From Candidatus Omnitrophota bacterium (lineage in GTDB: Bacteria > Ratteibacteria > UBA8468 > B48-G9 > DTJG01), in contig JAMWCD010000008.1 of NCBI GenBank assembly GCA_023818965.1, positions 47,086-111,085 of the forward strand: a stretch of 64,000 nt of DNA. Direction: 5' to 3'. The stretch's first letter is position 1, and each line of letters starts with the position of its first letter. A program made the translations under genes and the position numbers. This document shows, piece after piece, positions 2,994 through 54,400 of the stretch. The notes under the pieces are model-generated. The model had not been told where the DNA came from. It ran no database searches and was given only the letters and a program-made list of their open reading frames with translations.

Positions 2994-3125
2994 TTTCTTT
3001 GAAAATTTCTTAGTCTTTTCCTCCTCCATTCTCCCCCTTTTTACAAAGGGGATCTAAGGGGGATTTAAGGTAGTTTCTCCCTTTTCCAAAGGGAGATGCA
3101 AGAGGGATTTTGAATGTAGAAGGTT
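2994..3125. repeat. G-rich palindromic repeat array (families F1, F2)
   Basis: Units 'tctccccctttttacaaaggggatctaagggggattt' and 'gtagtttctcccttttccaaagggagatgcaagagggatttt'. Confidence 0.8.
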
Positions 3126-3161
3126 AACAGAAATTTTTGATTGTTAAAGGAGAAGCATAAT

Positions 3162-6100
3162 ATGAAAATCAGGAATTTAATTTTATCACTTGTTTTGACA
3201 GGCATTCTATTTACTCAGTACGCAAACTCAAAGGTAACGACTAATTCTGTAAGGTCATATGTTGTTGCCAATCAGGGAATTCTTCCGAATACAAATAGCG
3301 TTCCGCATTCGCCATACAGTCAGGTAATCGGTAGAAATGCAATTGGTGAGGGATACATTATAATTTTTGGTATGAACCTTGCCTCAGATTCTGGTGCGAC
3401 GAGTCCGCAACGTCTTGTCAGTGTAACATTAACAATGGCGCCAACACCTGGATTTGATGTTGACTCGTCTGTTATTATCGATCGTTCTGGAACAATTCTC
3501 GGTGTTACAGGTGGAGTTGGAACAATAACGATACCTGCCGGACGCAGGCCAATATTACCACCTGATGATACTGGTGGATATGCTGGAGATGATTTTTTTG
3601 TTGCGATAAGAACATCTGATAATTGTCTTGATGGCAGCAGTGCAACTTTTTCTATTCCTGCACTTGGTGTTTCTGTTACTCCTGTTCTTGAAGGTGATGT
3701 AACCTGTCCAGGTGGAACCACTGTGGCAATAACGTGTGAAATGCTTATTGGCGACTTATTGCCTGAAGAATATGATAATGCTCATTCAATAGGAATACCT
3801 CAGTATCCTTCTTATTTTCAGTGGCAGCCAGGAGAAATGATAAGACCAAGATATGACCATATTCCATTTGATTATCAATATGCAATCAGTCCATTGACAT
3901 TGCCTACTGTTCCACTGATTCACAATGTTCCACAGGTTGTTCCCTGGGAGACACCAACAGCAGTTCTCGGAATTGCATGCGCTCAAAGAAATGTTACTCC
4001 GAGTGGGGATCCTGTTCCTGCGATTCAGGACCCAGGTGAAGGATTGAATTCAATTACCTTGACTATTACAGATGTTGGAGATAGTGATTTTGATCCGAAT
4101 AATTTTTTCAGAAATAGAGATATTACTTTTGTTAACCCTGAAAATCCATATTCTATCCCGGGTATCACGCTGTGGAAGGATACCAATAATAATGGAATTT
4201 GGGACCCAGGAGATACATTATTAGATTATCAAATGAGTCCTTTTACTCCAACAGGCAATGTTAGGGAATGGACAGTTTCTCTTTCTCCAGTATTAGGAGA
4301 ACCTGATACTATTGATGACCTCTGGGATGGAACTGGGGGAAAGGGGAAATACGATTATTTTATTGTAATCACAATTGCAAGTTCAAATGATTCAGGTACA
4401 CCCAATGTTTCAATTGGTGGTGACTTCAAAATATGGATACCACGAGGTGGTGTTTTGTTTGGTCCTCTTTCTTTTCCCCAGCGATATGCGGGAATATCTC
4501 AAGGACAGGTAAAAACAACTTATCACAATCTTTATGTTGAAAATATCTGCCAGTCATTTGTTGATCCAACAGATACAGGTGATGCACCTGATTTAACATC
4601 AAATGTGATTCCTGTCTTTGGTTTGAATATTGCTTCAGGACCAGCAAATCTTTTTCCGAATGAATACATACAGAGAGTCAGAATTGACCTTATTGCTTAT
4701 GAAAACATAGACCCTGATGATATCGCTCCATTGCAGGAAAACCAGTACTCTGGAATTACATTATGGCGAGATAACAAAAATCCGCCTGCACAGGTTTCAT
4801 CTGTCATAGCACTTGGCAATTTTGATAGTACCGATACATTTATTCCCTGTAGATTTAGCAGTAATCCATTTGGTCCTTATGATTTCCACTGGGCATCAGA
4901 TGGTTATGACCCATCAGTTGGTGCTTACAGATACCATACATATATGACAACATCAGGTTCTTTAACTGACACGGGCTATGTTTATTTTGATGACATTGAT
5001 CCTGATACTTCTACAGTTCACAGGGGAGATGATTTTTTCATTTGCTTAAGAACAAATAATACCCTTGCTTATGGTTCAAAATTCAGGATTCAGATACCGT
5101 GGAATGAAATCATACTTGAGGGAAGCAAACAAGCCAGGTCAAGTCACGAGTTTTTCTCAACACTTGTCACTGGAAATGTTTTTGCAAAAATCACGGGTCT
5201 TGTCAGTCAGGGAGCAACCATTGGCCCACAGAGTAGTCCAACGCCAGTAATGAAACTACAAATAAATGATAACAATTCAGGAAAAAATCCTTCTTTAACA
5301 GGGCTTACAGTTGAATTTTATAATCGTGGTGGATTTACTCTTGATGACCTTGCTCCATTTACCACGCTTTCTCCGTGGTATGAAGCAGGTACGAACTGGT
5401 ATAATATTACCAACTTCAGTCCTGATGCATTAAAACAATGTGGTGTTGTGATTTACAGGGGAACAGATGCTGGACCTGATTTGAATGACCCTGTGATAAT
5501 CAAAAGATATAAATTTTTAACTTCATCATGGTTTGATACACCCACGGGTTATGTTTTTGAATTTCAAAATCCTGTTTCAATTCCCTGTACTCTTTATGTT
5601 GTCATACGAACCTCATCTTCAATGAGTGCAGGCGATGCATTCAGTGTTGGTATTGTCGGATGGGGAGCAACTCAGATTGATTGGGATACCTGGGCATCAA
5701 GGGCAATTCCTGTTGTTGATAAAAATGGTGTTAAGAGCAATGCCTTTGTCAGAAAGGTCACAGAGCCGTTTAATTCAACGTTAGGTGGCACTCTTGATCT
5801 TTATGCTACACCAGGATTTGATGGAATTACGATCAACTGGGTAAACAGGACAAATGTCACACAAAATGAATTCATCAGTTATGAAATCTGGAGAACAGAT
5901 AGTATCGGTGGTGAAACAGATATAACAAGAATTTCAGTTCCAGCAGGTTGGTCTGCAACTTCATATTTTGAAGCAGTTTCAAGGCAGGGTACAGGTGGAC
6001 TTCTTGAAGGAGTAACTTATAATTATAGATTGGTTATGACTTATTCAAGGGCCGGGACAACTCAGACAGTTGTATCAAACAGGGTTAGTGCGAAAGTGTA

Positions 6101-6791: not shown

Positions 6792-7198
6792 AAATTTTAT
6801 TTCAATTCCCCTTTTAATTTTCAGGGGGACTACGGGGGATTTAAGTAGTTTCTCCCTTTTTTAAATTCTTCTTTCATCCTCCCCCTTTGTAAAGGGGGAC
6901 CACAGGGGGATTTTAAAAGTAGTTTCTCCCTTTTTAAAGGGAGATGCAAGAGGGATTTTAGCCCATCCTTTTGGTTATTCTTTGCCTCGTTTCCTCTCCC
7001 TTGAGGGGAGAGGACAAAAGGTGAGGGTGGCTGTGTAGGAGAATAACCTCCCCTTGCATCCCCTCCTTTCAGGAGGGGAAAGAGGGGAGGTGGCAAAGGG
7101 GGACTACGGGGGATTCAAAAGGAGGGAGAGCAGGAGGGAAAGAGGGGAGGTGATAAAGAGGGATGCAGGCGGATTGAAATAGCGCGATGCAATATTTC
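6792..7198. repeat. palindromic repeat array (F1, F2, F4) including a 140-bp composite unit duplicated at 26718-26860
   Basis: 'agcccatccttttgg[tc]tattctttgcctcgtttcctctcccttgaggggagaggacaaaaggtgagggtggctgtgtaggagaataacctccccttgcatcccctcctttcaggaggggaaagaggggaggtgg' is near-identical at both loci. Confidence 0.85.
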
Positions 7199-7347
7199 AT
7201 ACTAATTTGCCGTCAAAATTATAGGAATACCGAATTGAGTTCGCCAGAGAGCAAGGCGGCAAGGAGAAGGCAACGAGGCATACTGATGTATGTTGAGGAA
7301 GCCGACGACGCAGCCAACGATGCTATATGGATGGAATCAATTCGGTA
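7199..7347 (+). repeat. 149-bp two-copy element (copy 1) with an 11-12 bp long-range inverted repeat 'ataccgaattga...tcaattcggta'; candidate structured sRNA or MITE-like element
   Basis: About 98% identical (3 mismatches in 149) to 17993-18141. It ends 16 nt before the ATG of the 7364 gene. Confidence 0.6.
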
Positions 7348-7363
7348 TCAACAATTTTAAAAA

Positions 7364-9046: not shown

Positions 9047-9176
9047 AACTTCTCCCATTTTTCAAATCCCCCTTCAAATTCTTCCATCTTCCCCCTTTTT
9101 CCATCCATTTCTTGCCTTATTTCCTCTCCCTTTTTCAAAGGGAGATGCAAGAGGGATTTGAGAGGAAATTGACCTC
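9047..9176. repeat. palindromic repeat array (F1 variant, F2)
   Basis: 'tttctcttccctttttcaaagggagatgcaagagggattt'. Confidence 0.7.
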
Positions 9177-10239: not shown

Positions 10240-10530
10240 ATTCTCCCCCTTTTTAACCTCCCCTTGCATCCCCTCCTTTCAGGAGGGGAAAGAAGGGAAG
10301 TGCCAAAGGGGGACTGAGGGGGATTTAAATCCACCCCAACCCTCCTTTAGAAAAGGAGGGAGAAAATTTCCCCCTTTTTCAAATCCCTCCTCCAATTTCC
10401 CCCTTTTTTAACCTCCCATTGCATCCCCCCTCCTTGCAGGAGGGGAAACAGGGGAAGTGGCGAAGGGGGACTAAAGGGGATTGAAAAGTAGGGAGAGCAG
10501 GCGAAGGAAGAGGTACAATAAGATGATACA
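10240..10530. repeat. palindromic repeat array (F4, F1, F3)
   Basis: 'cctccccttgcatcccctcctttcaggaggggaaaga' occurs twice here. 'atccaccccaaccctcctttagaaaaggagggag' is also present. Confidence 0.8.
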
Positions 10531-16277: not shown

Positions 16278-16670
16278 ACCGGCTCTTTGACATTTATTGA
16301 TAGTTTCCCCCTTTTTCAACCTTCGCTCGTCTCCCCCTTTTGCAAAGGGGGACTAAGGGGGATTTAAGGTAGTTTCTCCCTTTTCCAAAGGGAGATGCAA
16401 GAGGGATTTTTATTTTTATGAAGAATCCACCCCCACCCTCCTTTAAAAAAGGAGTGAGAGAAAATTTCCCCCTTTAATAAATCCCTCCTCCGTCCTCCCC
16501 CTTTTTCAAAGGGGGACGAAGGGGGATTTTAAATGAGGGGGATTTAAGGTAGTTTCTCCCTTTTTTAAAGGGAGATGAAAGAGGGATTTTTATCCCCAGG
16601 GAAAATCCACCCCAACCCTCCTTTTTCAAAGGAGGGAGACCAGGAGGAAGCGAGGGGAGGTAGTACAGGA
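16278..16670. repeat. palindromic repeat array (F1, F2, F3, repeated twice over)
   Basis: Two successive F1-F2-F3 blocks. The ORF-track start of the next gene at 16575 lies inside this array. Confidence 0.8.
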
Positions 16671-16712
16671 TATGAAGTTCAGAAATTCATGATTTTACAG
16701 GAGACACCCAAT

Positions 16713-17447
16713 ATGAATTTACCAAAACCTAAAAGTGCATTCACACTTATTGAACTTCTCGTGGTCATAGCAATTATCGCGATTCTTGCTGCCATGCTAC
16801 TGCCCGCGCTATCAAAAGCAAGAGCAAGGGCTCATCAGGCAGTTTGCATGAGCAATCTCAAGCAACTCGGAAACTGCTTTTTTATGTACGCTGATGACTG
16901 GGATGGCTTTTTTCCTAAGGATGCAACAATGTCCAATGTCTGGTTTACACAGATTGCTCTTTACATCCCGCAGACAAGAACCGGCTTTGTTGCGTACAGC
17001 AGTATGTATGACCCAACAGAAGACAACTGGGTTTCAGGAATTTTGAGATGCCCTGCAGAGCCAAAGAGTTCTGCGTTCTGGAATGTTGACTGGAGCGGTA
17101 TGGAGCCAGCAGTGAACAAGGTTGCGACATGGTATGGAATGAATGGTTATCTCTGTGGAACAAGTTCAGACCCTGATTTAAGATACTGGCCCAAACTCTC
17201 AAGAATTAGAAATCCTTCAGCCACGTTTTTACTTTGCGATATGAAACCAGGACCACAACTTGATAATTCTGATTACTACGCAAGAATCAATTTCAATCAT
17301 CCTGAAATGGGCATTGCTTACAGGCACTCTGGTTCAGCCAGTTTCCTTTTTTGTGACGGACATGTAGAAGCAAGAACAAAACAGCAGGTTCCTGTGTGGT
17401 ATTCAGGAACAACTGATCCATTCTGGTTCAGTGGCCAAACGCAATAA
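16713..17447 (+). CDS. prepilin-type N-terminal cleavage/methylation domain protein with C-terminal H-X9-DG (DUF1559-like) motif
   Basis: '[31 protein letters not shown]' is a class III signal peptide and pilin helix. The C-terminus '[24 protein letters not shown]' has the spacing of the H-X9-DG family that is expanded in Planctomycetes and Verrucomicrobia. Start set at ATG 16713; the 16575 start would read through repeats. Confidence 0.75.
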
Positions 17448-17660
17448 TCTTGTCTTCCCCCTTTCCCAAATTCCTCCCCATCCTCCCCCTTTTTCAAAGG
17501 GGGACTGAGGGGGATTCAAAGTAGTTTCTCCCTTTTCCAACCTCCCTCTCGTCTTCCCCCTTTTCCAAAGGGGGACTAAAGGGGGATTTCATCTTTTAAA
17601 TCCACCCCCACCCTCCTTTTTCAAAGGAGGGAGAGCAGGAGGGGAAAAGAGGGGAGGTAG
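17448..17660. repeat. palindromic repeat array (F1 twice, F3)
   Basis: 'tcctccccctttttcaaagggggactgagggggattcaaa' and 'ccacccccaccctcctttttcaaaggagggagagcagg'. Confidence 0.8.
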
Positions 17661-17707
17661 CAATGTAGATTTTCTCAATCCCTTGATTTTCGCGGTTTCC
17701 GGGGCTC

Positions 17708-17735
17708 TTGACAAAATTAAAAATGTGGTTATAAT
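17708..17735 (+). promoter_or_regulatory. sigma70-type promoter (TTGACA-16-TATAAT), first of a tandem pair
   Basis: 'cTTGACAaaattaaaaatgtggtTATAATaa'. Confidence 0.45.
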
Positions 17736-17766
17736 AATTTGTGAAAATGAAAAATCTGGGCAGGTC

Positions 17767-17794
17767 TTGACAAAAAAAATTTAGCAGGTATAAT
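17767..17794 (+). promoter_or_regulatory. sigma70-type promoter (TTGACA-16-TATAAT), second of the tandem pair, reading toward the 149-bp element
   Basis: 'cTTGACAaaaaaaatttagcaggTATAATaa'. There is no convincing CDS downstream before 18675. Confidence 0.45.
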
Positions 17795-17992
17795 AAAGTT
17801 GAAGTAAAAATTTTGACAACACCAAAAAGGTGAAAATATAAAGTAAATGCAGGACAAGATTTACCCAAATTCCGTTCATAATCAGTCGCACCAATACCAC
17901 TCGAGGTATCAAAAAAGGTGTCTTGCTTTTTCATTTTTCAGGAAATTCCATTTTACATTTTCAACGCAGGTTCTTTGAAAATTTGGGTTGTT

Positions 17993-18141
17993 ATACTAAT
18001 TTGCCGTCAAAATTGTAGGAATACCGAATTGAGTTCGCCAGAGAGCAAGGCGGCAAGGAGAAGGCAACGAGGCATACTGAAGTATGTTGAGGAAGCCGAC
18101 GACGCAGCCAACGATGCTATATGGATGAAATCAATTCGGTA
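17993..18141 (+). repeat. 149-bp two-copy element (copy 2), candidate sRNA or MITE-like
   Basis: About 98% identical to 7199-7347, with the same terminal 11-bp inverted repeat. It lies about 200 nt downstream of the tandem promoters. Confidence 0.6.
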
Positions 18142-18189
18142 ATAATATTTTATCCTGTGTTTTTACTCCTTTGAACCTGGAATTCTCTT

Positions 18190-18480
18190 TTCCAAATTTT
18201 TCGCCTTTCATAAAATCCACCCCAACTCTCCAAATCCCCCTTCCATTCCCCCTTTTGTAAATTCCTCCTCCAATTCCCCCTTTTCCAAAGGGGGACTAAA
18301 GGGGGATTTAAGCAGTTTCTCCCTTTTCCAAAGGGAGATGAAAGAGGGATTTTTATCCCCAGGGAAAATCCACCCCAACCCTCCTTTAGAAAAGGAGGGA
18401 GAAGAATATAATTTCCCCCTTTTCCAAAGGGGGACTAAAGGGGGATTAAAAAGGAGGGGAGCAAGGGGGATTAGAAAGGA
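18190..18480. repeat. palindromic repeat array (F1, F2, F3, F1)
   Basis: 'ttcccccttttccaaagggggactaaagggggatttaagcagtttctcccttttccaaagggagatgaaagagggattttt...ccaccccaaccctcctttagaaaaggagggag'. Confidence 0.8.
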
Positions 18481-18674
18481 GAAAAAGGGAGAAGGAAGAT
18501 GGTAGTTAAAGGAGGTGATGTCGCAGGATAAAATTTCAAACTCCAAAAAAATAATGCGAAAAGGAGGTGATGACGAAAAAATACAACATTGTAATTATGA
18601 GCAGTATCAGCAGTACAAGGCAGTAGGTAGTTTGCAGGTAAAAAGTTTTTGCTTGCAAAACGCAAGGAGGTAAA

Positions 18675-21482: not shown

Positions 21483-21719
21483 TGTGTAGTTAGAAGTAAA
21501 AAGGGGAGGGATTTTTTTTCCCTCCCCTTTTTTTTAACCTCCCCTTAACCCCCTCCTGAATCCCCCTATTTTTCCCTTTCATAAATTCCACCTCCATCTT
21601 CCCCCTTTTCATAAAGCGGGATTGAGGGGGATTTCATCTTTTAAATCCACCCCAACCCTCCTTTAGAAAAGGAGGGAGACCGGTGGGGACAACGGGGGAT
21701 TGAAAGGGGAATTTTCCAC
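21483..21719. repeat. palindromic repeat array
   Basis: 'aaaaggggagggattttttttccctccccttttttt' is a perfect hairpin, probably the terminator of the upstream gene. F1 and F3 units follow. Confidence 0.75.
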
Positions 21720-21747
21720 TTGACAAAAATAAAAAATGGGGTACAAT
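21720..21747 (+). promoter_or_regulatory. sigma70-type promoter TTGACA-16-TACAAT, 6 nt before ATG 21754 (near-leaderless)
   Basis: 'cTTGACAaaaataaaaaatggggTACAATttttttATG'. Confidence 0.4.
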
Positions 21748-21753: not shown

Positions 21754-22656
21754 ATGGCTCGTCAATACTTTGCTGTGCGGGTGAAATTTGTTGCTACTTT
21801 TTTGTTTGTTTCCTTTTTCTCGTCCTTTGTTTTTGCTGAAAACACTGCAGTTAGAGACCTTCCTGAACAATACACGCCTGGCTCAAATATTAATGTTTCA
21901 ATTTCTGTGACTATGGACCCGCAGTATCCAACAAACGGTGTTGTTATAACAGAAAACCTGCCGCAGGGCTGGGCAATTGTTCAGTCAAATCCTTCCTGGA
22001 GCAAATACATCGCAAGCACAAACACCTATAAGTGGCTTTCATTTAGCAGTGGATCCATTGGTTCTTTTAATATCACATACACTCTTAGTGTGCCTGGCAA
22101 TGCTTCAGGTAATTATGAATTCACTGGTACAATTTATGATGGCTATTCAATAAGAGATATTACTGGTGATACAGTAATTTCTCAATTGCCACAGGTTGGT
22201 TCGCCTGTTTTTTCTCCGCAGCCCGGAAATTTTTATAATTTTTTTCCTGATGTAGAAATCGCCTGTTCCACAGAAAATGCTGTAATTCATTATACAATTG
22301 ATGGAAGTGAGCCCGATGAAAATTCTTCAGTTTATTCATTACCGCTGCATATTACACAATCAACAACAATAAAGGCGCGCGGATATAAACAGGGTATGTC
22401 GCCGAGTTCAATTGCACAGGGTGTTTACAATATTGAGATTCAAAAAGGAGATATCAACAGGGATGGAATAATTGATATTTCTGATGTGATTTTGTGTTTG
22501 AGGATGGCAGTTGAACTTGATATAACAGTTGACCAGCAGTCATACAGCAAGCCATATAATGATTGGTTGATTGCAATTGCTAATATGAATGATGACTCAG
22601 TAGTTGATATTTCAGATGTGATTAAGGTTTTGAGAAAGGCGATAGAGCTTGATTGA
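21754..22656 (+). CDS. secreted protein: DUF11-like domain, chitobiase/hexosaminidase-C-like (Fn3-associated) domain, C-terminal dockerin type I module
   Basis: 'ENLPQGWAIVQSNP...YKWLSF...ITYTLSVPGNASGNYEFTGTIY'. 'ACSTENAVIHYTIDGSEPDENSSVY...TTIKARGYKQGMSPSS'. The dockerin has two 'D-x-N-x-DG-x-x-D-x-S-D' segments: 'GDINRDGIIDISDVILCLRMAV' and 'ANMNDDSVVDISDVIKVLRKAI'. Confidence 0.75.
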   Translation: MARQYFAVRVKFVATFLFVSFFSSFVFAENTAVRDLPEQYTPGSNINVSISVTMDPQYPTNGVVITENLPQGWAIVQSNPSWSKYIASTNTYKWLSFSSGSIGSFNITYTLSVPGNASGNYEFTGTIYDGYSIRDITGDTVISQLPQVGSPVFSPQPGNFYNFFPDVEIACSTENAVIHYTIDGSEPDENSSVYSLPLHITQSTTIKARGYKQGMSPSSIAQGVYNIEIQKGDINRDGIIDISDVILCLRMAVELDITVDQQSYSKPYNDWLIAIANMNDDSVVDISDVIKVLRKAIELD

Positions 22657-22980
22657 AATCTGGTAAAGGAGTAAAATTATTGTGGCTCTTTGAAATCCCC
22701 CTCTGTCCCCCTTTAATAAAGGGGGAAGATGAGCGAAGGATGAAAAAGGGGGAAGTTATATTCTTCTCCCTCCTTTGATAAAGGAGGGTCGGGGGTGGAT
22801 TTAGAGGATTAAAATCCCCCTTTGTCCCCCTTTGAAAAAGGGGGAAGAAGGAAGAGGGGTTTGGTAAAGGGGGAGGATGAGAGTAGCTTGAAAAAGGGGG
22901 AGATGAAAGAGAAATTCGAAAAAGGGGGAATGGAAGGGGATGTTGGCAATAAAAATCAAAAAATGGATTTAATATAACAG
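22657..22980. repeat. palindromic repeat array in inverted orientation relative to most other arrays
   Basis: 'aatccccctctgtccccctttaataaagggggaag' is the reverse complement of the F1 unit. Confidence 0.75.
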
Positions 22981-22983
22981 GAG

Positions 22984-25900
22984 ATGAGTGTGAAAATAAT
23001 GAAATTTTTAACAATAGGACTTCTTACAATTTTTGGACTTGTAATTATTGCGAATGCAGCCAGTGTTTCAGGTCCAGGAACAATAAGAGTCAGGGCAGGT
23101 GGAACAGGAAGTTTTTCTTCAAACACATACACTGCGACTTATGGAACTGGAGACAGTGGTGATTTTATATGGACAGAAACAGGGACTATTCCTGGAGGGT
23201 TCATTTCAATTTCACGGAATCCTCCATCGCCTTTTTCAACAGCGACCCTTAGTGTTTCTGCGTTTTCAGGGACTACGCCTGGTTCTTATGATATCCGTGT
23301 GAATGCCTATCCTGCTACTGGTACTGCTGGAACACGTGCTGTTACAATTATTGTTGTTGAAGGTCTTGGAAGTATTTCTCCAACGTCATTGCCTGATGGA
23401 AAGGAAAATACGTCGGTCAATGTTCAATTTACTGTTTCAAGTGGCACAGGTAATTACGAGTGGAGTGTTTCAGGTGCGCCATCTGGTGTGACAATGAATA
23501 GTTCAACAGGACTTTTGTCAGGTGCACCATTACAGGGTACTGCTGGCAATTATAATTTGACTATTTTTGTGACTGATAATACTGATCCTGTTCAGAGTAC
23601 ACAGATTTCAATTCCGTGGAGAATTTTACCTGCGTATATTCCACTGTCAAATCAGGGACAGATTTGTTATGTGAAGAACATTGTCAGGGATACAAATGGC
23701 ATTATTACAAGCACTGGCGACCTTTATGTGAAGAATTTACAGACAGGAGTTGAAAGAAGAATTACAAATTACTCAACAACTGGAACAGGAGCAATTTTAA
23801 ATCCAATGCTCACTCCTGATGGTTCAAAGGTTCTTTATACATATAGCCCCAATCCATCAACAACAAATTTCAGGATTTATCTTGTCAGTACACTGTCAAC
23901 TGTTTCAGGAACAAACCAGGGTTTGATTTTGAAGAAAAATAATCAGGAAGCAATACCATCTACAATGAATACAAAGTATGCTGCAATCTCTCCTGATTAC
24001 AATGGTTCTTCTGGTCTTATTGTTTTTACTTACGAAAAAAGTGATAGGTCAGAACTATGGCTTTACAATTTTTTCACTGAAAGTTTGAGTCAGTTGAGGT
24101 CAGAAGCAAATATGTACATCAGGCATCCTGTATTTTTGAATACAGGATCCATCGCATTTGTTGGCGTGAAAAATGGAGTGCAGGATATCTATGTGATTGA
24201 TACAAATGGAACAAATTACAGGAAACTTACCACAAATGTACCCATAAGTCCTGAATACGATAGAATCCAGAGCGGGTTTAGAAATCCGAATTTGACAAAT
24301 CCACTTTTGATTTATGGCAAAAGATATTATGATAGCCAGAGGTACAAATACAGCGACTGGGATGTTTATGTTTCTGAACTGGATATGACTTCAGGAACCC
24401 TTACTGAATACAGGGTAACTGAGACACCGGATATTGATGAATTCAGCGCTGCGTTTTTTGGCGATTCAACAGAAAGGGACTTTGTTACACTTGTTAGAGA
24501 CAGTGGACAGATGTTTTATGAAGCAGCAGTTATTCCAGGAATACGCAATGTCTGGCAGACAAACTATGACACAGTTACACCAGCCAATAGCAATGCTTTG
24601 AAGCAGGAAAGGACTTCAGAAAGTAGTCATACAGGGCTTGTTAACTGGTCTCCACTTCCACCATCAGAAGTGCCTGAAGCAATTGCAATTGAAAATACAC
24701 GGCTTGTTTATATCAAACAGGCAGGTTCGTATAATGAAGTTTTCAGGTCTGACTGGACTGGTTCTGGTTTTGATACAACTGGAACACAATTAACTCCTTC
24801 TGGCTCTGACGCACATAAATCAAATCCATCAATCTCAAGAAATGGTGGACTTATTTCATTTACAATGGGCTCAATACCAAAGGATGTTTACAGAATAAAT
24901 AACGATGGTTCATCTCTTACAAGATTTGCAGGTCAATATCCCTATAATACCGATTATTCAACACTTTCACCTGATGGAAACTGGATTGTTTATGTTAGAA
25001 AAGAAACACCCAACGGCTATGCCATTTATGCAAAACCATCAACGAACGATTATTCAGGACAGGAAACAGCGATAGTAACAGGAATTTCTGCCAGTGAGAT
25101 TGATGCACCATCTTTTAATCCTGATATGACAAAAATTATTTATGCAGCGCGAGACCCTGGCGGATATTTTGATATTTACTATGTACCTGTGACAGTTGAT
25201 ACCATCAATAAAAAAATCACACCACTTTCTTCGCCTATAAACCTTACAAACACAGAATTTATTAATGAAAGAATGCCTTCATTCTCAAACACAGGCACAA
25301 AAATCATCTATTGTTCTGACAAAGAACTTACACCCGAAGAATATGAAATTTACACAATGAATGTCAGTGGTTCAGGAATTGAAAAGGTTGTTTCAGGACC
25401 AGGTCATATGTGGCCCATTTACAGTCCTGTTTCTGATACTGCAGCAGGTACTGATGTAATCGGGTATATTGAAAATGGCGAAATTATCTATGCGACACTT
25501 TCACGCACAGCACCACCTGGTTCTCCTTCAGGACAGAATCCAGTTTCAAATGTCATAAACACAGGAATTTCTGTACCAGCAGGTTATGAAAGATTTGGTT
25601 GGGGTAGGAAAAGAGGGGATGGAACAATTATTGCAACAAGAACTCTTCCAGCATCACTTGCAGCAGGCCAGCAAATAGTATACCAGATTTCTGTTGATGT
25701 TGATGAGGCAAAAATACCAAATTCATTTATCATCAATGAAACATTTTCAGACCAGTTTACTGGGGTTAGTGTCCTTGTTGATGGAACAACTGCAAACACA
25801 ACAATTTATCAATATCCGTCAGCAGGGCTTCAGACATTGAAACTTACCTTTATGAATGGGATGAATGGCGGAGTAAAAGACCATGTGATACGGATAACAA

Positions 25901-26313: not shown

Positions 26314-26895
26314 AAGTAGATTTATCCACAACAACATTATTAAATCCCCCTTTTATAAATCCCGCTCGTTTCTTCCCCCTTTCATAAAACCTCCTCTTTT
26401 AACTTCCCCCTTTTTCAAATTCCCCTCCAATTTCCCCCTTTTTCAAAGGGGGACAAAGGGGGATTTAAATCCACCCCAGCCCTCCTTTAGAAAAGGAGGG
26501 AGAAAAATATAATTTCCCCCTTTTGTAAAGGGGGACGCAGGGGGATTAAAAAGGAGGGAGAGGAAGGAAGGTAAAGGGGACTAAAGGGGGATTGAAAAGT
26601 AGGGAGAAGAATATAATTTTCCCCTTTTTCAAATTCCTCCTCCAATTTCCCCCTTTCATAAAGGGGGATTGAGGGGGATTTAAGGTAGTTTCTCCCTTTT
26701 TCAAAGGGAGATGCAAGAGGGATTTTTAGCCCATCCTTTTGGCTATTCTTTGCCTCGTTTCCTCTCCCTTGAGGGGAGAGGACAAAAGGTGAGGGTGGCT
26801 GTGTAGGAGAATAACCTCCCCTTGCATCCCCTCCTTTCAGGAGGGGAAAGAGGGGAGGTGGTAAAGGTGGATTAGGGGGGATTTTAAGAGGCAAA
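26314..26895. repeat. large palindromic repeat array (F1, F3, F2, 140-bp composite, F4)
   Basis: Contains the second copy of the 140-bp composite unit at about 26718-26860. Confidence 0.85.
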
Positions 26896-26903
26896 ATTGA
26901 ACA

Positions 26904-27506: not shown

Positions 27507-27745
27507 TTGCTGAAATTTCTGTTCCTCCTTTCGGCTAATAATCCACCCCCACCCTCTAAATCTCCCTTCCTTTCCCATTTTGCAACCTCCCTCTCATCTT
27601 CCCCCTTTCATAAATTCCTCCTCTGTTCTCCCCCTTTTTCAAAGGGGGACAAAGGTGGATTGAAAAGAAGGGGAAAGAGAGGAGGTGGTAAAGGGGGACT
27701 AAGGGAGATTGAAAAGGAGGGAGACCAATAGGAACACAGGGGAGA
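27507..27745. repeat. palindromic repeat array
   Basis: 'ccacccccaccctctaaatctcccttcc', 'tctccccctttttcaaagggggacaaaggtggatt'. Confidence 0.7.
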
Positions 27746-29627: not shown

Positions 29628-30140
29628 TTATTATTATATCACAAAAATTAGATGAAGTAATTTTTCTCAACCTCCCATTGCATCCCCTCTTGAATCCCCC
29701 TATTTTCCCCCTTTTCCAACCTCCCTCTCATCTTCCCCCTTTTCCAACCTCCCTCTCATCTTCCCCCTTTTTTTAAATCTCTCCTCCAATTTCCCCCTTT
29801 TTCAAAGGGGGACTAAAGGGGGATTTTATCTTCAAAATCCACCCCAGCCCTCCAAAATCCCCCTTCCTTTCCCATTTTGCAACCTCCCTCTCATCTTCCC
29901 CCTTTTTCAACCTCCCTCTCATCTTCCCTCTTTTTCAAAGGGGGACAAAGGGGGATTTTATCTTCAAAATCCACCCCAGCCCTCCTTTAGAAAAGGAGGG
30001 AGACCGGTGGGGACAAAGGGGGATTTTATCTTCAAAATCCACCCCAGCCCTCCTTTAGAAAAGGAGGGAGACCGGTGGGGACAAAGGGGGATTAAAAAGG
30101 AGGGAGATTAAGGGTGACACAGGGGATTGAAAAAGAAGGA
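29628..30140. repeat. palindromic repeat array including a tandem (about 2.3x) duplication of a roughly 63-bp F1+F3 unit
   Basis: 'ggggacaaagggggattttatcttcaaaatccaccccagccctcctttagaaaaggagggagaccggtg' is repeated head-to-tail from about 29938. Confidence 0.85.
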
Positions 30141-33707: not shown

Positions 33708-33830
33708 TCGCTCTTTCAGCAACCTCCCCTTTTCAAAATCCCTCTGGGGGATTAAAATCTCCCCCAGCCCCCTCTTTGGGAAAGAAAGGAGGTGGCAAAG
33801 GGGGACAAAGGGGGTTGAAAATGAGCACAG
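33708..33830. repeat. palindromic repeat array
   Basis: 'ggattaaaatctcccccagccccctctttgggaaagaaagg'. Confidence 0.6.
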
Positions 33831-37830: not shown

Positions 37831-37974
37831 CAAATTTTTTTTCTCACGGGGATTTGAATTGGAGCGAAGTAAGGGATTGCGAGCTGGCGCAGCAATCCCA
37901 GCGGACGGCGACCCGAGCCGTAGTGGGAGGCGAGGGCGCCAAATCCCCGCTTCGGCACAATTTTTTTTCTTACG

Positions 37975-38135
37975 GGGATTCACCTCCTTTTATCCACCCT
38001 TATCTCCCTCCTTTTTTAAAGGAGGGTGGGGGTGGATTTAAATCCCCCTTTTGTCCCCCTTTGCGAAAGGGGGAAATTATATTTTACTTCCTCCTTTTTT
38101 AAAGGAGGGTTGGGGGTGGATTTTTCCAATCAAAA
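37975..38135. repeat. perfect long palindromes 'aaatccacccccaccctccttttttaaaggagggtgggggtggattt' (two copies) flanking an F1 unit
   Basis: Roughly 20-bp perfect stems with an A/T loop. Confidence 0.8.
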
Positions 38136-42545: not shown

Positions 42546-42699
42546 CTGTTGTAAGATATTGTTCTTTGGAAAATTTGATTTACTGGTGTACGTAGCGTCC
42601 AGAGAAGGGTTCGGGAAACTCGTTTCCCGATTAATGCATTTGGGGGATGACTTTGAGAAGGGGGAATCGCCCCCTTCTCAAGGAGCGATAGCGACGGAC

Positions 42700-42845
42700 G
42701 GGGGGGCACTTGTCGCCTCCACTGCCACCTCCTTTTTCTCCCCTCCTGAAAGGAGGGGATGCAAGGGGAGGTTGAAATCCCCCTCAGTCCCTCTTTGTGA
42801 AAGGAGGAAGGATAGAGGGAGAATATAAAAGTGGGAATGGAAAGA
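42700..42845. repeat. palindromic repeat array (F4 and F1 in reverse orientation)
   Basis: 'ctcccctcctgaaaggaggggatgcaaggggaggttgaaatccccctcagtccctctttgtgaaaggagg'. Confidence 0.7.
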
Positions 42846-44879: not shown

Positions 44880-45240
44880 GAAACTATTTTATCCACATCT
44901 CCTTTCCCTAATTCCCATCAATTCCCCCCCAATCCCCCTTAGTCCCCCTTTGCCACTTCCCCTCTTTCCCCTCCTGAAAGGAGGGGATGCAAGGGGAGGT
45001 TAAACCTAAAGGAGGGTGGGGGTGGATTTAAATCCCCCTTAGTCCCCCTTTGGAAAAGGGGGAAGGTGGAAAGAGGATTTGAAAAAGGGGGACGAGAAGG
45101 GGGATTTTGGAAAAGGGGGAGAATGAAAAAGGGATTTATAAAAAGGGGGAATGGAAGGGGGATTTAGGAGGGCGGGGTGGATTTTTCCTGCCCAAGTTCC
45201 CCCTCTTTTCCAAAGACGGGGCCTGGGGGATTAATGGTGA
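44880..45240. repeat. palindromic repeat array (F4 reverse, F3 perfect palindrome, several F1 reverse)
   Basis: 'aaacctaaaggagggtgggggtggatttaaatcccccttagtccccctttggaaaagggggaagg'. Confidence 0.8.
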
Positions 45241-50113: not shown

Positions 50114-50871
50114 AAGTTCTTATTCTCAGAACAGGTGGAACAAACTGTGATTTAGAGACAGAATGGGCATGTAAACTTGCAGGCGCAAAGCCATCAAGAA
50201 TTCATATTTCACGGATAACAGAGGGAAAGGTAAAATTACTTGATTTTGATGTTCTCATAATTCCAGGTGGATTTTCCTATGGAGATGACCTTGGTGCAGG
50301 TAAGGTTTTAGCCAATGAATTGATATTGAAGGCAAAGGATGAAATCACTCTTTTCAGGGAAAAGAAAAGGCCAATTATTGGTATATGCAATGGTTTTCAG
50401 GTTCTTGTGAAGGCAGGACTGCTTCCATTCAAAGATCAGTATGTTGCAAGTTTAGTATGGAATGATTCGGGAAGATTTGAAGATCGATGGGTATATCTCA
50501 GGGTTGAGCAATCAATTTCTCCATTTTTCAAAAATCTTCCTGAAATCATCAGATTTCCTGTGGCTCACGCTGAAGGAAAGTTTGTGGTGAAAAATGATAG
50601 GGTACTTAAAAAAATTGAGAACAATAGCCAAATTGTTTTAAGATATGTAAATGCAGCAGGTGAAATTGCCGATTATCCTTATAATCCCAATGGTTCAATC
50701 GCAGGAATTGCTGGTATTTGTGATGAAAAGGGGCTAATTGTTGGAATGATGCCACATCCTGAGAGAGCACTATTGAAAATTCATGAACCTGACTGGCATA
50801 GAAATGAAACTGATGATGTTTTCTCTTTTGGGTATCAATTTTTCAAAAATGTGATAGAATATTGTTCTTGA
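50107..50871 (+). CDS. purQ: phosphoribosylformylglycinamidine synthase glutamine amidotransferase subunit PurQ
   Basis: 'IIPGGFSYGDDLGAG', 'GICNGFQVLVKAGLLP', 'MMPHPER'. ATG 50107 overlaps the purL stop (ATGGTAA). Confidence 0.9.
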   Translation: MVKVLILRTGGTNCDLETEWACKLAGAKPSRIHISRITEGKVKLLDFDVLIIPGGFSYGDDLGAGKVLANELILKAKDEITLFREKKRPIIGICNGFQVLVKAGLLPFKDQYVASLVWNDSGRFEDRWVYLRVEQSISPFFKNLPEIIRFPVAHAEGKFVVKNDRVLKKIENNSQIVLRYVNAAGEIADYPYNPNGSIAGIAGICDEKGLIVGMMPHPERALLKIHEPDWHRNETDDVFSFGYQFFKNVIEYCS

Positions 50872-50896
50872 AGTTTTCAAAAAAGGAGCTGATAAG

Positions 50897-52967: not shown

Positions 52968-53884
52968 TGAAACAAAAACGAGACCTTCTTGATATCAGGG
53001 ATTTAAATGAAACAGAAATTTACAGGATTTTTGAAAAGGCAAAATTATTTAAGTATGAGAGAAAAAAAGGAATTATCCATCAGGATGTATTAAACAAAAA
53101 ATGCATAGGACTTTTATTCAGAAAGCCGTCAAGTAGAACAAGGGTTTCTTTTGAGGTTGCCATTATTGAACTTGGTGGGAGTCCGGTTTTTCTTGATGCT
53201 TCAAAATTGCAAATTTCAAGAGGAGAAACAATCCAGGATACAGCAAAAACACTTAATCTTTATCTGGGTGGGCTTGTGATACGAACCTATGAACAATCAG
53301 AAGTTGAGACATTTGCTCAGTATATTGATTCTCCTGTTATTAATGCTCTCACTGATTTTTCTCATCCCTGCCAGATTCTTGCTGATTTTTTTACAATATG
53401 GGAAAAGAAAAAAAATCTTAAAGATGTTGTGATTACTTACATTGGAGATGCAAATAATGTTTGTAATACCTTAATTTTTGGTGCAGACATTCTTGGTGTA
53501 AGAATAAATGTTTCCTGCCCTGCGAAGTACACTGTGAGTAAAAAAATTATTGAATCAATGAAAAACCCATCACTACTGAAAATCAGTGAAGACCCATATG
53601 CCTTTATCTCTGAATCAGATGTGATTTACACAGATACCTGGGTGAGTATGGGAGATGAATCAGAAAAGCAGGTAAGAGAAGAAATTTTTAGACCATATCA
53701 GGTTAATGAGAAACTGGTGAAAAATGCTCCGCCTGATTTCTTATTTATGCATTGTCTTCCAGCACACAGGGGTCAGGAAGTAACAGATGAGATTATTGAT
53801 GGCAAAAATTCAGTCGTCTGGCAGCAGGCAGAAAATCGTCTCCACGTGCAAAAAGCAATTTTGTATCTTCTTTACAATAGTTGA
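52967..53884 (+). CDS. argF: ornithine carbamoyltransferase
   Basis: 'PSSRTRVSFEVA', 'HPCQILAD', 'HCLPAHRGQEV'. Confidence 0.9.
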   Translation: MKQKRDLLDIRDLNETEIYRIFEKAKLFKYERKKGIIHQDVLNKKCIGLLFRKPSSRTRVSFEVAIIELGGSPVFLDASKLQISRGETIQDTAKTLNLYLGGLVIRTYEQSEVETFAQYIDSPVINALTDFSHPCQILADFFTIWEKKKNLKDVVITYIGDANNVCNTLIFGADILGVRINVSCPAKYTVSKKIIESMKNPSLLKISEDPYAFISESDVIYTDTWVSMGDESEKQVREEIFRPYQVNEKLVKNAPPDFLFMHCLPAHRGQEVTDEIIDGKNSVVWQQAENRLHVQKAILYLLYNS

Positions 53885-54400
53885 GAAACTTCATCATAAA
53901 AATTTCATTTCTTTCAATTTTTCCCCTTTTCCAAATCCTCTTTCCACCTCACCCCTTTTTCAAATCCTCTTTTGACCTTCCCCCTTTTCCCAAATCCTCT
54001 TTTCATTCTCCCCCTTTTCCAAAGGGGGACTAAGGGGGATTTAAATCCACCCCCACCCTCCTTTAAAAAAGGAGGGAGACGAACGTAATTTCCCCCTTTT
54101 CCAAAGGGGGACACAGGGGGATTTTAAAGTACTTTCTCCCTTTCTCAAAGGGAGATGCAAGGGGGATTGAAATCTCCCCCAGCCCCCTCTTTGGAAAAGA
54201 GGGGGAACTTGGGCAGGAAAAATCCACCCCCGCCCTCCAAATCCCCCTTCCATTCCCCCTTTTGTAAAGGGGGACCAAAGGGGGATTGAAAAGGAGGGAG
54301 ACCATGTGGGACAGAGGGGATTGTGGGATTGAGGGGTATTTTAAGTAAGTTTCTCCCTTTTATAAATGGAGATGCAAGGGGAGGTTATAATATTTCTCCC
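53885..54400. repeat. palindromic repeat array (F1 x4, F3 x2, F2 x2)
   Basis: 'ctcccccttttccaaagggggactaagggggatttaaatccacccccaccctcctttaaaaaaggagggag...'. Confidence 0.85.

Follow-up and report, generated by a model that had tools for sequence, protein, structure and literature searches.

Intrastrand triplex motifs of the BoxC/PIT/TMECO class have been known in E. coli since 1992 (Bergler 1992 and Hoyne and Maher 2000, as cited in PMC4666352). The class is present in many taxa and, long known, is yet unexplained; the survey of Holder et al. (2015; PMC4666352) found no mobility gene. Its members have a three-block build, in which a pyrimidine arm, a loop and a purine arm are followed by a ~3-nt loop and a mirror purine block, and they occupy strictly intergenic, multi-copy, strain-variable loci, with inverted pairs always made of two distinct types (TMECO types A and B, PMC4666352). 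In REPIN-RAYT/BIME systems (Bertels and Rainey 2011, PMC3116915; PMC3337134) short intergenic palindromic units form mosaic clusters, inverted doublets fold into one long hairpin and the repeats flank a partner gene. MITEs (Delihas 2011, PMC3184786) are intergenic and foldable, and keep both ends while the internal gene is lost. Vsr-like (EDxHD) homing endonuclease genes such as I-Bth0305I (PMC3239194) encode a fold related to that of DUF559 proteins, which a PD-(D/E)XK survey groups together with Vsr. Finally, the mobile GC clusters of yeast mitochondrial DNA (PMC4478555) are short G/C-rich palindromes that spread through AT-rich intergenic DNA and vary between strains. Each of these systems shares features with the repeats described here, which lie in a 64-kb stretch (the window) of an Omnitrophota MAG.

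The sequence AAAGGGGGA occurs 82 times in the window when both strands are counted; shuffled sequences gave 1.24 ± 1.07. Fuzzy matching to the four consensus units of a preliminary description of this DNA, two further families and a half unit recovered 67 strictly defined units (F1, 22; F2, 8; F3, 11; F4, 6; F5, 2; F6, 3; half units, 15), grouped in 17 arrays. The four families, their mosaic arrangement, their intergenic position and the false ORFs that cross them (for example 26487-26894, 22622-23014 and 18208-18546, all on the minus strand) were as that description had them. Of the 21 intergenic gaps that measure 40 bp or more, 16 hold arrays; no gap of 150 bp or more lacks one, and the longest that is filled measures 590 bp (26314-26903). 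The units had been said to recur in both orientations, which holds between arrays but not within any of them: orientation is uniform inside all 17 (13 plus, 4 minus; P = 3e-7 under independent orientation, reached in 0 of 200,000 permutations). The arrays are as follows.

Array 1: 3032..3110, plus strand; F1 (3 errors) then F2 (0 errors), both left-end-type (LE) hairpins with a third G block.
Array 2: 6806..7170, plus; F1-like, half unit, F1, F2, F5, F4 and a G-rich tail, with 6920-7115 forming one copy of a ~200-bp block.
Array 3: 9047..9160, plus; C-rich half units then F2.
Array 4: 10240..10500, plus; F4, F1, F3, half unit, F4, F1-like.
Array 5: 16300..16640, plus; half unit, F1, F2, F3-like, half unit, F1, F2, F3. 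It overlaps the start that was called mechanically for ORF 16575-17447; the real one is probably later.
Array 6: 17448..17660, plus; half unit, F1, F1, F3 and a G-rich tail, with the junction GGGGGATTT-CATCTTTT-AAATCC at 17581-17603.
Array 7: 18215..18475, plus; half units, F1, F2, F3, F1.
Array 8: 21500..21745, plus; C-rich half units, degenerate F1, F3, with the same junction at 21626-21648.
Array 9 (inverted): 22690..22945, minus; F1, F3, F1 and three or four G-rich ~28-bp half units.
Array 10 (longest): 26340..26885, plus; four half units (29-bp period), F1 joined to F3 without spacer, F1, half unit, F1, F2, F5, F4, with the second copy of the ~200-bp block at 26685-26880 (plus).
Array 11: 27545..27745, plus, between convergent genes; half units, F1 and a G-rich tail.
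Array 12: 29680..30130, plus, between divergent genes; 28-bp half units x 2.4 (100% identity), F1, a 132-bp duplication and, at 29941-30093 (plus), an F1+F3 composite of 68 bp x 2.2 (100% identity).
Array 13: 33725..33815, plus; F6 (a right-end-type (RE) unit, AAATCTCCCCCAGCCCCCTCTTT...) and G blocks.
Array 14 (inverted): 37995..38125, minus, downstream of tRNA-Leu; F3 joined to F1 as a composite, and a second F3-like hairpin.
Array 15 (inverted): 42639..42830, minus, downstream of tmRNA; F4, degenerate F1.
Array 16 (inverted): 44900..45235, minus; F4, F3 remnant, F1, three or four half units, F6; the array has another length in strain L224.
Array 17: 53920..54405, plus, in the gap between argF and an M24 peptidase gene; half units (29 bp x 3.5), F1 joined to F3, F1, F2, F6, F1, F2-like.

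Two of the repeats had been noted before with other dimensions. The tandem composite of array 12 is real, at 68 bp x 2.2 rather than 63 bp x 2.3, and the near-identical pair in arrays 2 and 10, which lie 20 kb apart, spans ~200 bp rather than 140 bp, with 2-3 mismatches. It includes the fifth family, F5 (CCTCTCCCTTGAGGGGAGAGG-ACAAAA-GGTGAGGGTGG).

Each unit consists of three blocks: a pyrimidine arm, a loop and a purine arm, then a short spacer and a further G block. This extra block had been reported as a second copy of the stem half; it is present, but it mirrors the purine arm (GGGAGA/AGAGGG, GGAGGGG/GGGGAGG, GAGGGGG/GGGGGAG) rather than repeating it directly, the mirror fit prevailing by 17 to 3 in the window and by 113 to 32 in other loci. 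The units of this low-GC lineage are polar and of two types. In left-end-type units (F1, F2, F5) the hairpin is followed by the G block and ATTT, whereas right-end-type units (F3, F6) run from AAAT through a C block into the hairpin. The two alternative F1 hairpins proposed earlier were borne out on folding: the C arm pairs with either G block at close energies, and the MFE fold (-14.8 kcal/mol, ensemble frequency 0.32) takes the distal one. Supposedly perfect 20-bp palindromes proved to be 9-bp stems with a 3-nt loop (CCCTCCTTT-TTT-AAAGGAGGG). F1+F3 composites fold as one long hairpin (-37.6 and -45.3 kcal/mol on the two strands; z-scores -3.2 and -4.2), and their junction, GGGGGATTT followed by AAATCC.CCCC, is itself palindromic.

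By architecture the units belong to the BoxC/PIT/TMECO class, which the preliminary description did not recognise, and window F5 (CCTCTCCC..GGGGAGAGG..GGTGAGGGTGG) is close to the TMECO pattern. As with TMECO types A and B, inverted pairs here combine two different kinds of unit. They differ from the E. coli members in their stems (G5/C5 extended by TTT/AAA, against CCCTCNCCC), in their Omnitrophota host and in forming oriented arrays of up to ~550 bp with 28-29-bp half units, where E. coli has singles and pairs. Rfam gave no match to the units above threshold. The yeast clusters are eukaryotic organellar elements of unrelated sequence.

The repeats had been thought genome-specific. Exact matches to the F1 pattern are found, however, in at least 118 genome contigs, with ~0.04 expected, and in 104 viral contigs. 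The units are thus spread across phyla: the genome contigs, which include cultured isolates, come from Desulfobacterota, Gamma- and Betaproteobacteria, Nitrospirota, Chloroflexota, Ignavibacteria, CPR, Omnitrophota, Leptospiraceae, Bacteroidia and others, and F3 recurs near-identically beside a DUF559 gene in a deltaproteobacterial MAG and another Omnitrophica MAG. Closer to the window, gaps holding 468-571 bp of units are empty, at 11-25 bp, in the relatives L225 and L226 (25 bp for the argF-M24 peptidase gap of array 17), while another related lineage has arrays in different gaps, with an array and DUF559 after argF. Related lineages have gained arrays independently, and in different gaps. 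Strain L224 has flanking proteins that are ~99% identical; its counterpart of the 44.8-45.3 kb array is ~157 bp shorter, with part of the sequence replaced, and the differences from the window are whole units. This variability and the ~200-bp multi-unit block in two arrays fit the recombination hotspot suggested before.

Outside the window, the units are physically associated, in a fixed geometry, with genes for DUF559 proteins (Vsr-like endonucleases of ~115 aa with a conserved E-x-D-G-x-x-H motif). Upstream, an F1-type unit ends in GGGGGATTT at a distance of 7-70 nt from the ATG; downstream, an F3-type unit (AAATCCACCCC plus hairpin) begins at or near the stop codon. This bracketing held in all loci sampled, namely four motif-first loci, the eight closest viral relatives and seven metagenome loci. 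In the motif-first loci (L228, L053, L047 and L218) the gene directly adjoins the units, with Pfam PF04480 E-values of 1e-32 to 1e-39. In the protein-first direction, flanking units were seen in 8/8 viral relatives, as high-GC variants. In 7/7 metagenome/MAG loci, six of them picked with no visible unit-encoded extension, a left-end unit precedes the ATG by 7-70 nt and a right-end unit follows the stop at 0-30 nt. At distances of up to 200 nt from a DUF559 gene, units are ~27-fold denser than elsewhere in these loci. Among the 120 homologues closest to the L053 protein, 76 carry a C-terminal tail that the right-end unit encodes (e.g. ...KSTLTLL), and N-terminal extensions are translated left-end units in ~25 of 120 homologues of the L228 protein.

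Window F1 aligns with DUF559 left ends, and window F3 and F6 with right ends. The junction found identically at two separate window loci (17581 and 21626) contains CATCTT(T)TAA, which resembles the final His-Leu-stop codons of DUF559 genes (L379, L388). No DUF559 gene was found in the 64-kb window or in 10 kb of homologous upstream sequence, and only 3 of 222 motif-selected loci contain one. In E. coli, the TMECO beside ycjD/fabI has the same build as the window units; among the genomes sampled, the median number of TMECO places is 19 where the K-12-type ycjD locus is present and 12 where it is absent, and 8 of the 22 that lack it have ≤4. This comparison is uncorrected for phylogeny, and the ycjD-minus state is an eef operon replacement rather than a clean empty site.

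Together, these observations lead us to favour, at a probability of roughly 55%, a reading in which the arrays are stacked BoxC/PIT-type intrastrand triplex motifs and gene-less derivatives of a DUF559 element, spread by its nuclease. Other genomes show a single small DUF559 (Vsr-like PD-(D/E)XK) gene between one left end and one right end, and because F1- and F3-type units take these positions, the F1+F3 composites look, from their sequence, like REPIN/MITE-like gene-less derivatives of that element; the window would hold gene-less forms only, as F1/F3 composites, solo ends and half units. The nuclease may recognise or cut the units, at the hairpin, triplex or palindromic junction, and cutting could lead to copying of the element by homing-like repair from an occupied copy or by nuclease-initiated transposition. 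Since the gene is present in so few motif-selected loci, it would have to act in trans on the gene-less copies. Arrays may then grow by oriented insertion beside or into existing units, and also by local slippage and duplication and by gene conversion between arrays.

An element of this kind would resemble a MITE in its identical deletion junction at more than one window locus, but differs in that each end is a hairpin with a third block, and that no known transposase family and no target-site duplication were identified; clean occupied and empty alleles were likewise looked for and not found. It would follow homing-site logic, in that the DUF559 gene interrupts a junction (GGGGGATTT joined to AAATCCCCC) which in gene-less copies is unbroken and forms a palindrome. 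Unlike a homing endonuclease gene, however, DUF559 is free-standing in intergenic repeats rather than in an intron or intein, and its putative target is a dispersed repeat rather than a conserved gene. DUF559 proteins have no known biochemical activity, and the sole solved structure, 3HRL, is uncharacterised. The DUF559 genes could equally home into pre-existing repeats without spreading them.

Slippage alone explains part of array growth, because half-unit arrays and 100%-identical tandem copies are present. It is possible, if on balance unlikely, that no enzyme is involved at all, and that structure-prone (triplex or hairpin) DNA multiplies by replication slippage, template switching and ectopic recombination, with DUF559 genes as separate selfish genes that prefer to insert or survive there. 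The identical tandems and the 132-bp duplication fit slippage, deletion between direct repeats would account for the unit-sized changes seen against the 99% strain, and the shared ~200-bp block fits gene conversion; triplex-motif loci are, in addition, tied to instability with no mobility genes found (Holder et al. 2015, PMC4666352), and 219/222 motif-selected loci have no DUF559 gene nearby. Slippage, however, cannot seed new gaps, such as those that measure 11-25 bp in L225 and L226 but hold 468-571 bp of units in the window, or the other gaps occupied in the related lineage, and it leaves without explanation both the near-identity of left and right ends across phyla and the identical deletion junction at two loci. 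In many DUF559 genes, too, the last residues and the stop codon are supplied by the right-end unit, a sign of common history and not of accidental insertion.

Selection for host RNA or DNA signals, as transcript punctuation, mRNA-stabilising hairpins or a Shine-Dalgarno-sequestering switch, is improbable as the main account. The arrays are intergenic and lie just upstream of strong promoter-like sites (e.g. 21720 and 30164, with 11/12 consensus positions), their G blocks are Shine-Dalgarno-like and can each pair with the F1 C arm at similar energy, and the distal G block stands 7-14 nt before the start codon in several phage contigs and before DUF559 genes. In the window, however, start codons are mostly >50 nt away from the units, four arrays run opposite to flanking genes that themselves share one direction, and close relatives lack the units altogether. 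The terminator function suggested earlier fares no better: a U-tract is absent, the 24 terminator-like sites show no clear enrichment over the 15.4 ± 4.9 expected for 15 kb, and the few that involve units are on the non-coding strand. Maher's work, as cited in PMC4666352, likewise assigns E. coli members no promoter or terminator activity.

The BIME analogy drawn in the preliminary description is apt for palindromic units in mosaic clusters, and the composites do fold like REPINs, but mobilisation by a RAYT (an IS200-like tyrosine transposase) is very doubtful. The GTAG/CGTC tag is absent, successive units share one orientation where BIMEs alternate, no transposase- or RAYT-type domain was found among window ORFs scanned against Pfam and no recurrent transposase-like neighbour in 222 motif-bearing loci. 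The gene bracketed by units is instead DUF559, whose product is a PD-(D/E)XK nuclease rather than an HUH tyrosine transposase, and units and gene are common to several phyla, whereas REPIN-RAYT systems are, in the accounts cited, mostly vertically inherited. A conserved in-frame repeat peptide is effectively refuted: long spurious ORFs traverse the arrays and unit-derived peptides occur at the ends of database proteins, but these are in every case run-ons at the N or C terminus of DUF559 ORFs, and the arrays lie in both orientations, are missing from the same gaps in relatives and differ between strains by non-multiples of three.

On the reading favoured here, any role of the units for the host, in transcript punctuation or genome plasticity, would be secondary and putative. 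The link between these units and a DUF559 gene is new; no mobility gene had been linked to the class in the work cited, and a DUF559 gene bracketed elsewhere by the same units provides a candidate enzyme that may spread the repeats.

The window has a G+C content of about 38% and carries most of its genes on the plus strand; the gene content includes large surface or secreted proteins, enzymes of purine and arginine biosynthesis, SmpB, tmRNA, tRNA-Leu and, at the right end, a two-partner secretion pair. The intergenic gaps are marked by clusters of G and C runs, and the G-rich hairpin repeats reported there in the preliminary description are real, with AAAGGGGGA occurring 82 times against 1.24 expected. 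Fuzzy matching with the four consensus units of that description, two further families and a half unit located 67 units in 17 arrays. Of the 21 gaps measuring 40 bp or more, 16 hold arrays, among them every gap that reaches 150 bp. Several of the lengths first given were revised. The F1+F3 composite (F1 to F6 denote the unit families), previously described as a 63-bp tandem unit, is repeated 2.2 times at 100% identity with a length of 68 bp according to Tandem Repeats Finder, which also returned a 132-bp duplication. The F2-F5-F4 block that is near-identical in the arrays at 6.9 kb and 26.7 kb spans about 200 bp and not 140 bp, and the supposed perfect 20-bp palindromes are 9-bp stems with 3-nt loops.

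Left-type units (F1, F2 and F5) comprise, in order, a C-rich arm, a T3-n-A3 loop, a G-rich arm, 3-6 nt, a second G-rich block and ATTT. Right-type units (F3 and F6) are the inverse, namely AAAT, a C-rich block, 2-3 nt, a C-rich arm, a loop and a G-rich arm, and F4 has an extra block at both sides. A typical array begins with several C-rich half units, periodic at 28-29 bp (Tandem Repeats Finder), and continues with F1, sometimes F2, and then F3 or F6; F1 and F3 frequently adjoin, with GGGGGATTT running directly into AAATCCACCCC. Unit direction is uniform inside each of the 17 arrays (13 plus, 4 minus; P = 3e-7 if orientations are independent), an outcome reached by none of 200,000 permutations. 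When duplex pairing only is considered (ViennaRNA), the 78-nt F1-F3 composite can fold as a single long hairpin, with energies of -37.6 and -45.3 kcal/mol for the two strands (z-scores -3.2 and -4.2). The two mutually exclusive hairpins proposed earlier are thermodynamically reasonable, since the alternative pairings of the F1 C-arm are near-equal in energy, but the extra block on which that proposal relied is a mirror and not a direct copy of the purine arm (GGGAGA/AGAGGG, GGAGGGG/GGGGAGG, GAGGGGG/GGGGGAG, GGAGGG/GGGTGG). The mirror was the better fit in 17 cases against 3 in the window, and in 113 against 32 at other loci.

Other features of the window are as follows.

7196-7352 and 17997-18150: two copies, 98% identical, of a repeat some 155 nt long with inverted ends ACCGAATTGA...TCAATTCGGT, which folds as a single long irregular hairpin (-50.5 kcal/mol, z = -5.1); Rfam gave no match, none of the 394 fetched comparison loci contains the repeat, and it could represent either a small RNA gene or a MITE of another kind.
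17700-18000: two perfect sigma-70 consensus promoters (TTGACA, 16 nt, TATAAT; 17708-17735 and 17767-17794) in a 1.2-kb gene-free gap, where a small RNA or small-protein locus may be situated between two arrays.
17596-17934, minus strand: a 112-aa ORF with no Pfam match.
37832-37975: the 3' end of tRNA-Leu(CAG), CAAATCCCCGCTTCGGCACAA plus a T-run and CACGGGGATT, which recurs about 130 nt downstream with some 100 nt of GC-rich sequence between the copies; the duplication looks like the scar of an element integrated in the tRNA gene.
42549-42720: a GC-rich, hairpin-forming stretch directly 3' of the tmRNA match, GGGGGATGAC..GAGAAGGGGGAATCGCCCCCTTCTC..GACGGACGGGGGGG, kept in the 79% relative (comparison locus L228, 150-290); it may be a 3' extension or terminator of the tmRNA gene rather than part of the repeat system.
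56218-64000: the two-partner secretion pair, consisting of a ShlB/FhaC-type transporter (56218-57906) and an exoprotein with a TPS domain, over 2000 aa long, that continues past the window end, with G+C up to about 0.45.

Escherichia coli repeats built of a hairpin and a third block have been named BoxC, later PIT (potential intrastrand triplex) and later still TMECO (Holder et al., 2015; PMC4666352). Strain MG1655 holds 23 TMECO copies, all of them intergenic; five occur in inverted pairs, each of which joins a type A to a type B unit; 3610 copies are held by 262 proteobacterial genomes; and cyanobacteria are rich in G/C-rich motifs (PMC4666352). The motif DNA forms a triplex in vitro, a stable triplex in vivo has not been demonstrated, and the loci are tied to instability between strains (PMC4666352). 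The window units share the architecture of this class. F1, F2 and F5, the reverse complements of F3 and F6, and F4 on both strands all consist of a pyrimidine arm, the purine arm complementary to it and a further purine block, with short loops in between. The third block is a mirror repeat, as called for by G.G:C, A.A:T and T.A:T triads, and the units are intergenic, multi-copy and arranged in inverted pairs of two distinct types, the F1-F3 composites being recurrent. The TMECO consensus itself (CCCTCNCCC N3-6 GGGNGAGGG N3 GGGNGAGGG) is approached by F5 alone, and F1-F4 and F6 have other stems. On architecture, as read from sequence, the window units therefore belong to the class and not to the TMECO family. 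The arrays represent a genuine and striking expansion within this repeat class, and since the class is already known, the system proposed earlier as specific to this genome is not a discovery.

Nor are the units restricted to one genome. An exact-pattern scan for F1 (24 specified bases; about 0.04 matches expected in 596 Gb, by our own arithmetic) recovered it in at least 118 contigs from many phyla; the pattern is also present in 104 viral contigs. Among the matches listed are Desulfobacterota, Gamma- and Betaproteobacteria, Nitrospirota, Chloroflexota, Ignavibacteria, Parcubacteria and other CPR, Omnitrophota, Leptospiraceae, Bacteroidia and more, and the isolates include Iodobacter arcticus, Pseudoxanthomonas sp. 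z9 and Geomesophilobacter sediminis. The consensus of F1 matches elsewhere is tCCCCCTTTgaaAAAGGGGGAttgAGGGGGATtt, often followed 2-60 nt later by the inverse unit aaATCCCCCCTgaCCCCCCTTTttcAAAGGGGGGa. The class extends far beyond Proteobacteria and Cyanobacteria, with near-same units in distant phyla and in phage contigs, and this goes beyond the literature consulted. A plasmid search with a composite unit gave a single weak match, and searching the literature for the unit sequences written as text yielded nothing relevant. Unit orientation relative to flanking ORFs was without bias in the other genomes, and clustering of neighbouring ORFs at 118, then 222, listed motif-bearing loci revealed no recurrent neighbour except phage structural genes in one phage group. 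In several phage contigs (for example L148, 2467-2497; L144, L158, L177 and L190) units lie in sense orientation between structural genes, the distal G block being a few nucleotides before the next start codon, and a site after a capsid-like gene is common to ten contigs.

Synteny with metagenome relatives shows that different lineages gained arrays at different places. The argF-to-peptidase gap measures 571 bp in the window against 25 bp in L225/L226, and the racemase-to-PTPS gap 468 bp against 11 bp; in the L227-L230 lineage a 246-bp array separates two arginine genes that abut in the window. In the strain L224, whose flanking proteins are about 99% identical, the 44.8-kb array is without three half units and has different units, and the 53.9-kb array gives way to unrelated sequence after TCCCCCTTTTCCAA, at the loop/arm boundary. 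Read on the minus strand, this sequence (L224 10985-11151, window about 53.99 kb) encodes the C-terminal portion of an ORF (...KVYLVYYKDGKKRLTEIPKKVEVLTEKLKLNLFPKDLRSLG) extending into the unit, so that a different gene may be inserted exactly at the hairpin loop/arm boundary. The L224 contig ends inside the 53.9-kb array and L392 also ends in an array, which indicates that arrays break metagenome assemblies; they are also a source of false ORFs and, in protein databases, of false extensions at N- and C-termini.

A search for small genes enclosed by units returned only ordinary host or phage genes and DUF559, a family of small (about 115 aa) Vsr-like PD-(D/E)XK endonucleases (PF04480). In L227-L230, from a relative of the window organism with 79% identical argF, a DUF559 ORF (Pfam E = 3.5e-36) directly follows the post-argF array and is succeeded by more units. 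Searching from the motif, the same arrangement was found in a deltaproteobacterial MAG (L053), a Nitrospirales genome with variant stems (L047) and a viral contig (L218/L304), in each of which 15-30 nt separate the end of a left-type unit from the ATG, and the stop codon coincides with the position of a right-type unit; in L053 the right end, AAAATCCACCCTAACCCTCCTTTAGAAAAGGAGGGA, is nearly the same as window F3. The proteins of L228, L053, L218 and L047 match PF04480 at 109-132 bits against a gathering cut-off of 20.6. DUF559 keeps the E-x-D-G-x-x-H motif, and a PD-(D/E)XK survey groups it with Vsr and the homing enzyme I-Bth0305I. Searching from the protein, the eight closest viral-contig relatives were all flanked by high-GC variants of hairpin-plus-block units, and more distant relatives were without flanking units. 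The phage contig IMGVR_UViG_3300035670_001258 (L145, L218 and L304) carries many units, with three stacked left ends ahead of its own DUF559 gene.

The units are also visible in the proteins. For the L053 protein, 76 of the best 120 homologues carry a C-terminal tail that is encoded by the right-end unit (for instance ...EHLKSTLTLL, KSPLTPL). The best 120 homologues of the L228 protein are 61-69% identical and come from sources that include Omnitrophica, Schekmanbacteria, Hypogeohydataceae, Abyssobacteria, Elusimicrobiota and Thermodesulfobacteriota; about 25 of them have N-terminal run-ons that are translated left-end units. At all seven independent loci for which DNA was fetched, six of them picked for having no visible unit-derived extension, left-end units are found 7-70 nt before the gene and right-end units 0-30 nt after it. 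Unit density in the fetched DUF559 loci is about 27-fold higher within 200 nt of the gene than elsewhere, so that the adjacency is not a mere by-product of repeat-rich genomes. The bracketed segment is about 0.45-0.5 kb long with the nuclease as its sole coding content, and one such copy lies inside a macA-macB-type operon. Alignments of left and right ends group window F1 with the former and F3 and F6 with the latter, and in another Omnitrophica MAG (L391, one of the seven fetched loci) the units are virtually those of window F1, F3 and F6. Assignment of L391 to the window's own MAG was considered and rejected, the protein accessions being about 10,400 apart; it is probably a different MAG of the same submission. 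In other phyla as well, long tandem left-type arrays with a period of about 44 bp follow DUF559 genes (L382 950-1548, and downstream in L388); they differ in length by one unit (30-43 bp) between samples with an identical DUF559 protein.

No DUF559 ORF was found in the 64-kb window or in 10 kb of homologous upstream sequence, taken from a 13-kb contig that belongs to a different sample and stops within the first array, and NCBIfam and PADLOC returned a YcjD match below cut-off, weak nuclease-domain matches and no defence system. Literature searches on DUF559 and its E. coli member ycjD found no paper connecting the family with the repeats. The text of PMC4666352 has no mention of endonuclease, ycjD or DUF559, and its authors never found transposases, integrases or other mobility functions near the motifs. 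As an association, the link between DUF559 and the units is strong; the mechanism is unproven and directly testable in E. coli.

Set beside the gene-carrying copies, the window F1-F3 composites look like internal-deletion derivatives. In the manner of MITEs, the window units have terminal inverted repeats in common with the gene-carrying DUF559 copies, F1 aligning with their left ends and F3/F6 with their right ends; no target-site duplication was definable, the empty-site relatives being just 70-79% identical, and the element's protein is a putative nuclease. In the composites the left end runs through ATTT and is joined to AAATCC directly or via 8 nt, and the same junction, GGGGGATTT-CATCTTTT-AAATCC, is present at two separate loci (17581 and 21626), which is the outcome expected from copying an already deleted element. 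The last codons of DUF559 genes, His-Leu-stop (CATCTATAA in L379, CATCTGTAA in L388), are similar to the string CATCTT(T)TAA, a likeness that is suggestive only. In four arrays F2 is placed between F1 and either F3 or F6, and stacked left ends precede the DUF559 genes of L304, L382 and L391; both observations fit oriented insertion that recurred in or close to the junction. Without the gene, the junction forms an 18-bp palindrome, which is whole in the gene-less composites and interrupted in the gene-carrying copies; the logic would be that of a homing site, and it is in this logic only that the element resembles a homing endonuclease gene.

Cross-phylum spread, a fixed geometry of left end, gene and right end, independent gains, strain-level turnover and oriented arrays are all evident in the sequences compared. 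They suggest that the BoxC/PIT/triplex-motif repeats, unexplained since 1992, may be non-autonomous partners of a pan-bacterial selfish element whose sole gene is a DUF559 (Vsr-like) endonuclease, a reading that we put at a probability of about 0.45. The nuclease would recognise the units and drive their copying, for which homing-like repair, nuclease-initiated transposition, or a mere preference of the gene for pre-existing repeats are candidate routes, and the element would have expanded in the Omnitrophota genome of the window, filling nearly all intergenic gaps. Local slippage is clearly one contributor to the growth of arrays, which probably also undergo gene conversion with one another. 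The distal G block plausibly doubles as a ribosome-binding site for DUF559 and some phage genes, and translation could be gated by which of the two G blocks the C arm pairs with.

The main rival is structural instability of the repeats acting with no enzyme, which accounts for local array growth and fails on the seeding of new gaps and on the common ends across phyla. The REP/BIME-like reading of the preliminary description, with its associated RAYT transposase, has a parallel in that a RAYT gene is flanked by REPs much as the DUF559 gene is bracketed by units. It fails in that the GTAG/CGTC tag is absent from the unit consensus sequences, no RAYT (Y1 transposase) gene is present among the scanned window ORFs and no recurrent transposase-like neighbour among the 222 listed loci, and successive BIME units alternate whereas the 17 window arrays are internally uniform. 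Transcript punctuation, also suggested at first, is not supported: terminator sites are not clearly enriched (24 against 15.4 +/- 4.9 expected), unit matches fall on the opposite strand, and the stem is followed by a spacer and a G block without a U-tract. Earlier work, as cited in PMC4666352, detected neither promoter nor terminator activity in the E. coli motifs. At gathering score Rfam returned just the tmRNA and tRNA, the arrays matching microRNA hairpin models only, below threshold. A coding origin is excluded by the position, orientation and indels of the units. KOPS, Chi, DNA uptake sequences, a CsrA sponge and G-quadruplexes were dropped on reasoning only, as misfits with cross-phylum conservation and hairpin symmetry.

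In E. coli K-12 the DUF559 gene ycjD adjoins fabI (envM), the region where BoxC was first noted. The ycjD stop codon overlaps a degenerate right-type unit, a duplicate of the gene's own 3' fragment comes next, and a perfect type A TMECO/BoxC lies about 200 nt downstream (L393, NC_000913.3 1351040-1351830). A long hairpin (CACCTCATTCTGACA...TGTCAGAATGAGGTG) overlaps the ycjD start. The TMECO query matches 5426 of 5426 complete E. coli genomes, at a median of 16 places, and ycjD is present in 3378 of the 5426, the eefRABCD region replacing it in the remainder (PMC12817139). This is the case for strain S88, which leaves no clean empty site and is uninformative on insertion. In a spread sample, genomes with the K-12-type locus have 12-28 TMECO places (median 19) and those without it 1-20 (median 12; four or fewer in 8 of 22); the difference (Mann-Whitney p = 2e-8, Fisher p = 1.4e-4) is confounded by phylogroup, and with that qualification the counts fit a link between ycjD and the repeats.

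If the selfish DUF559 element is real, it would be a nuclease-driven counterpart to REPIN-RAYT that crosses phylum boundaries and occurs also in phages. Were the nuclease to act on the units, K-12, with its one DUF559 gene, ycjD, and about 20 units, would make it possible to test how BoxC/PIT elements arose and spread, and the very large DUF559 protein family, annotated without a function, would gain a role.
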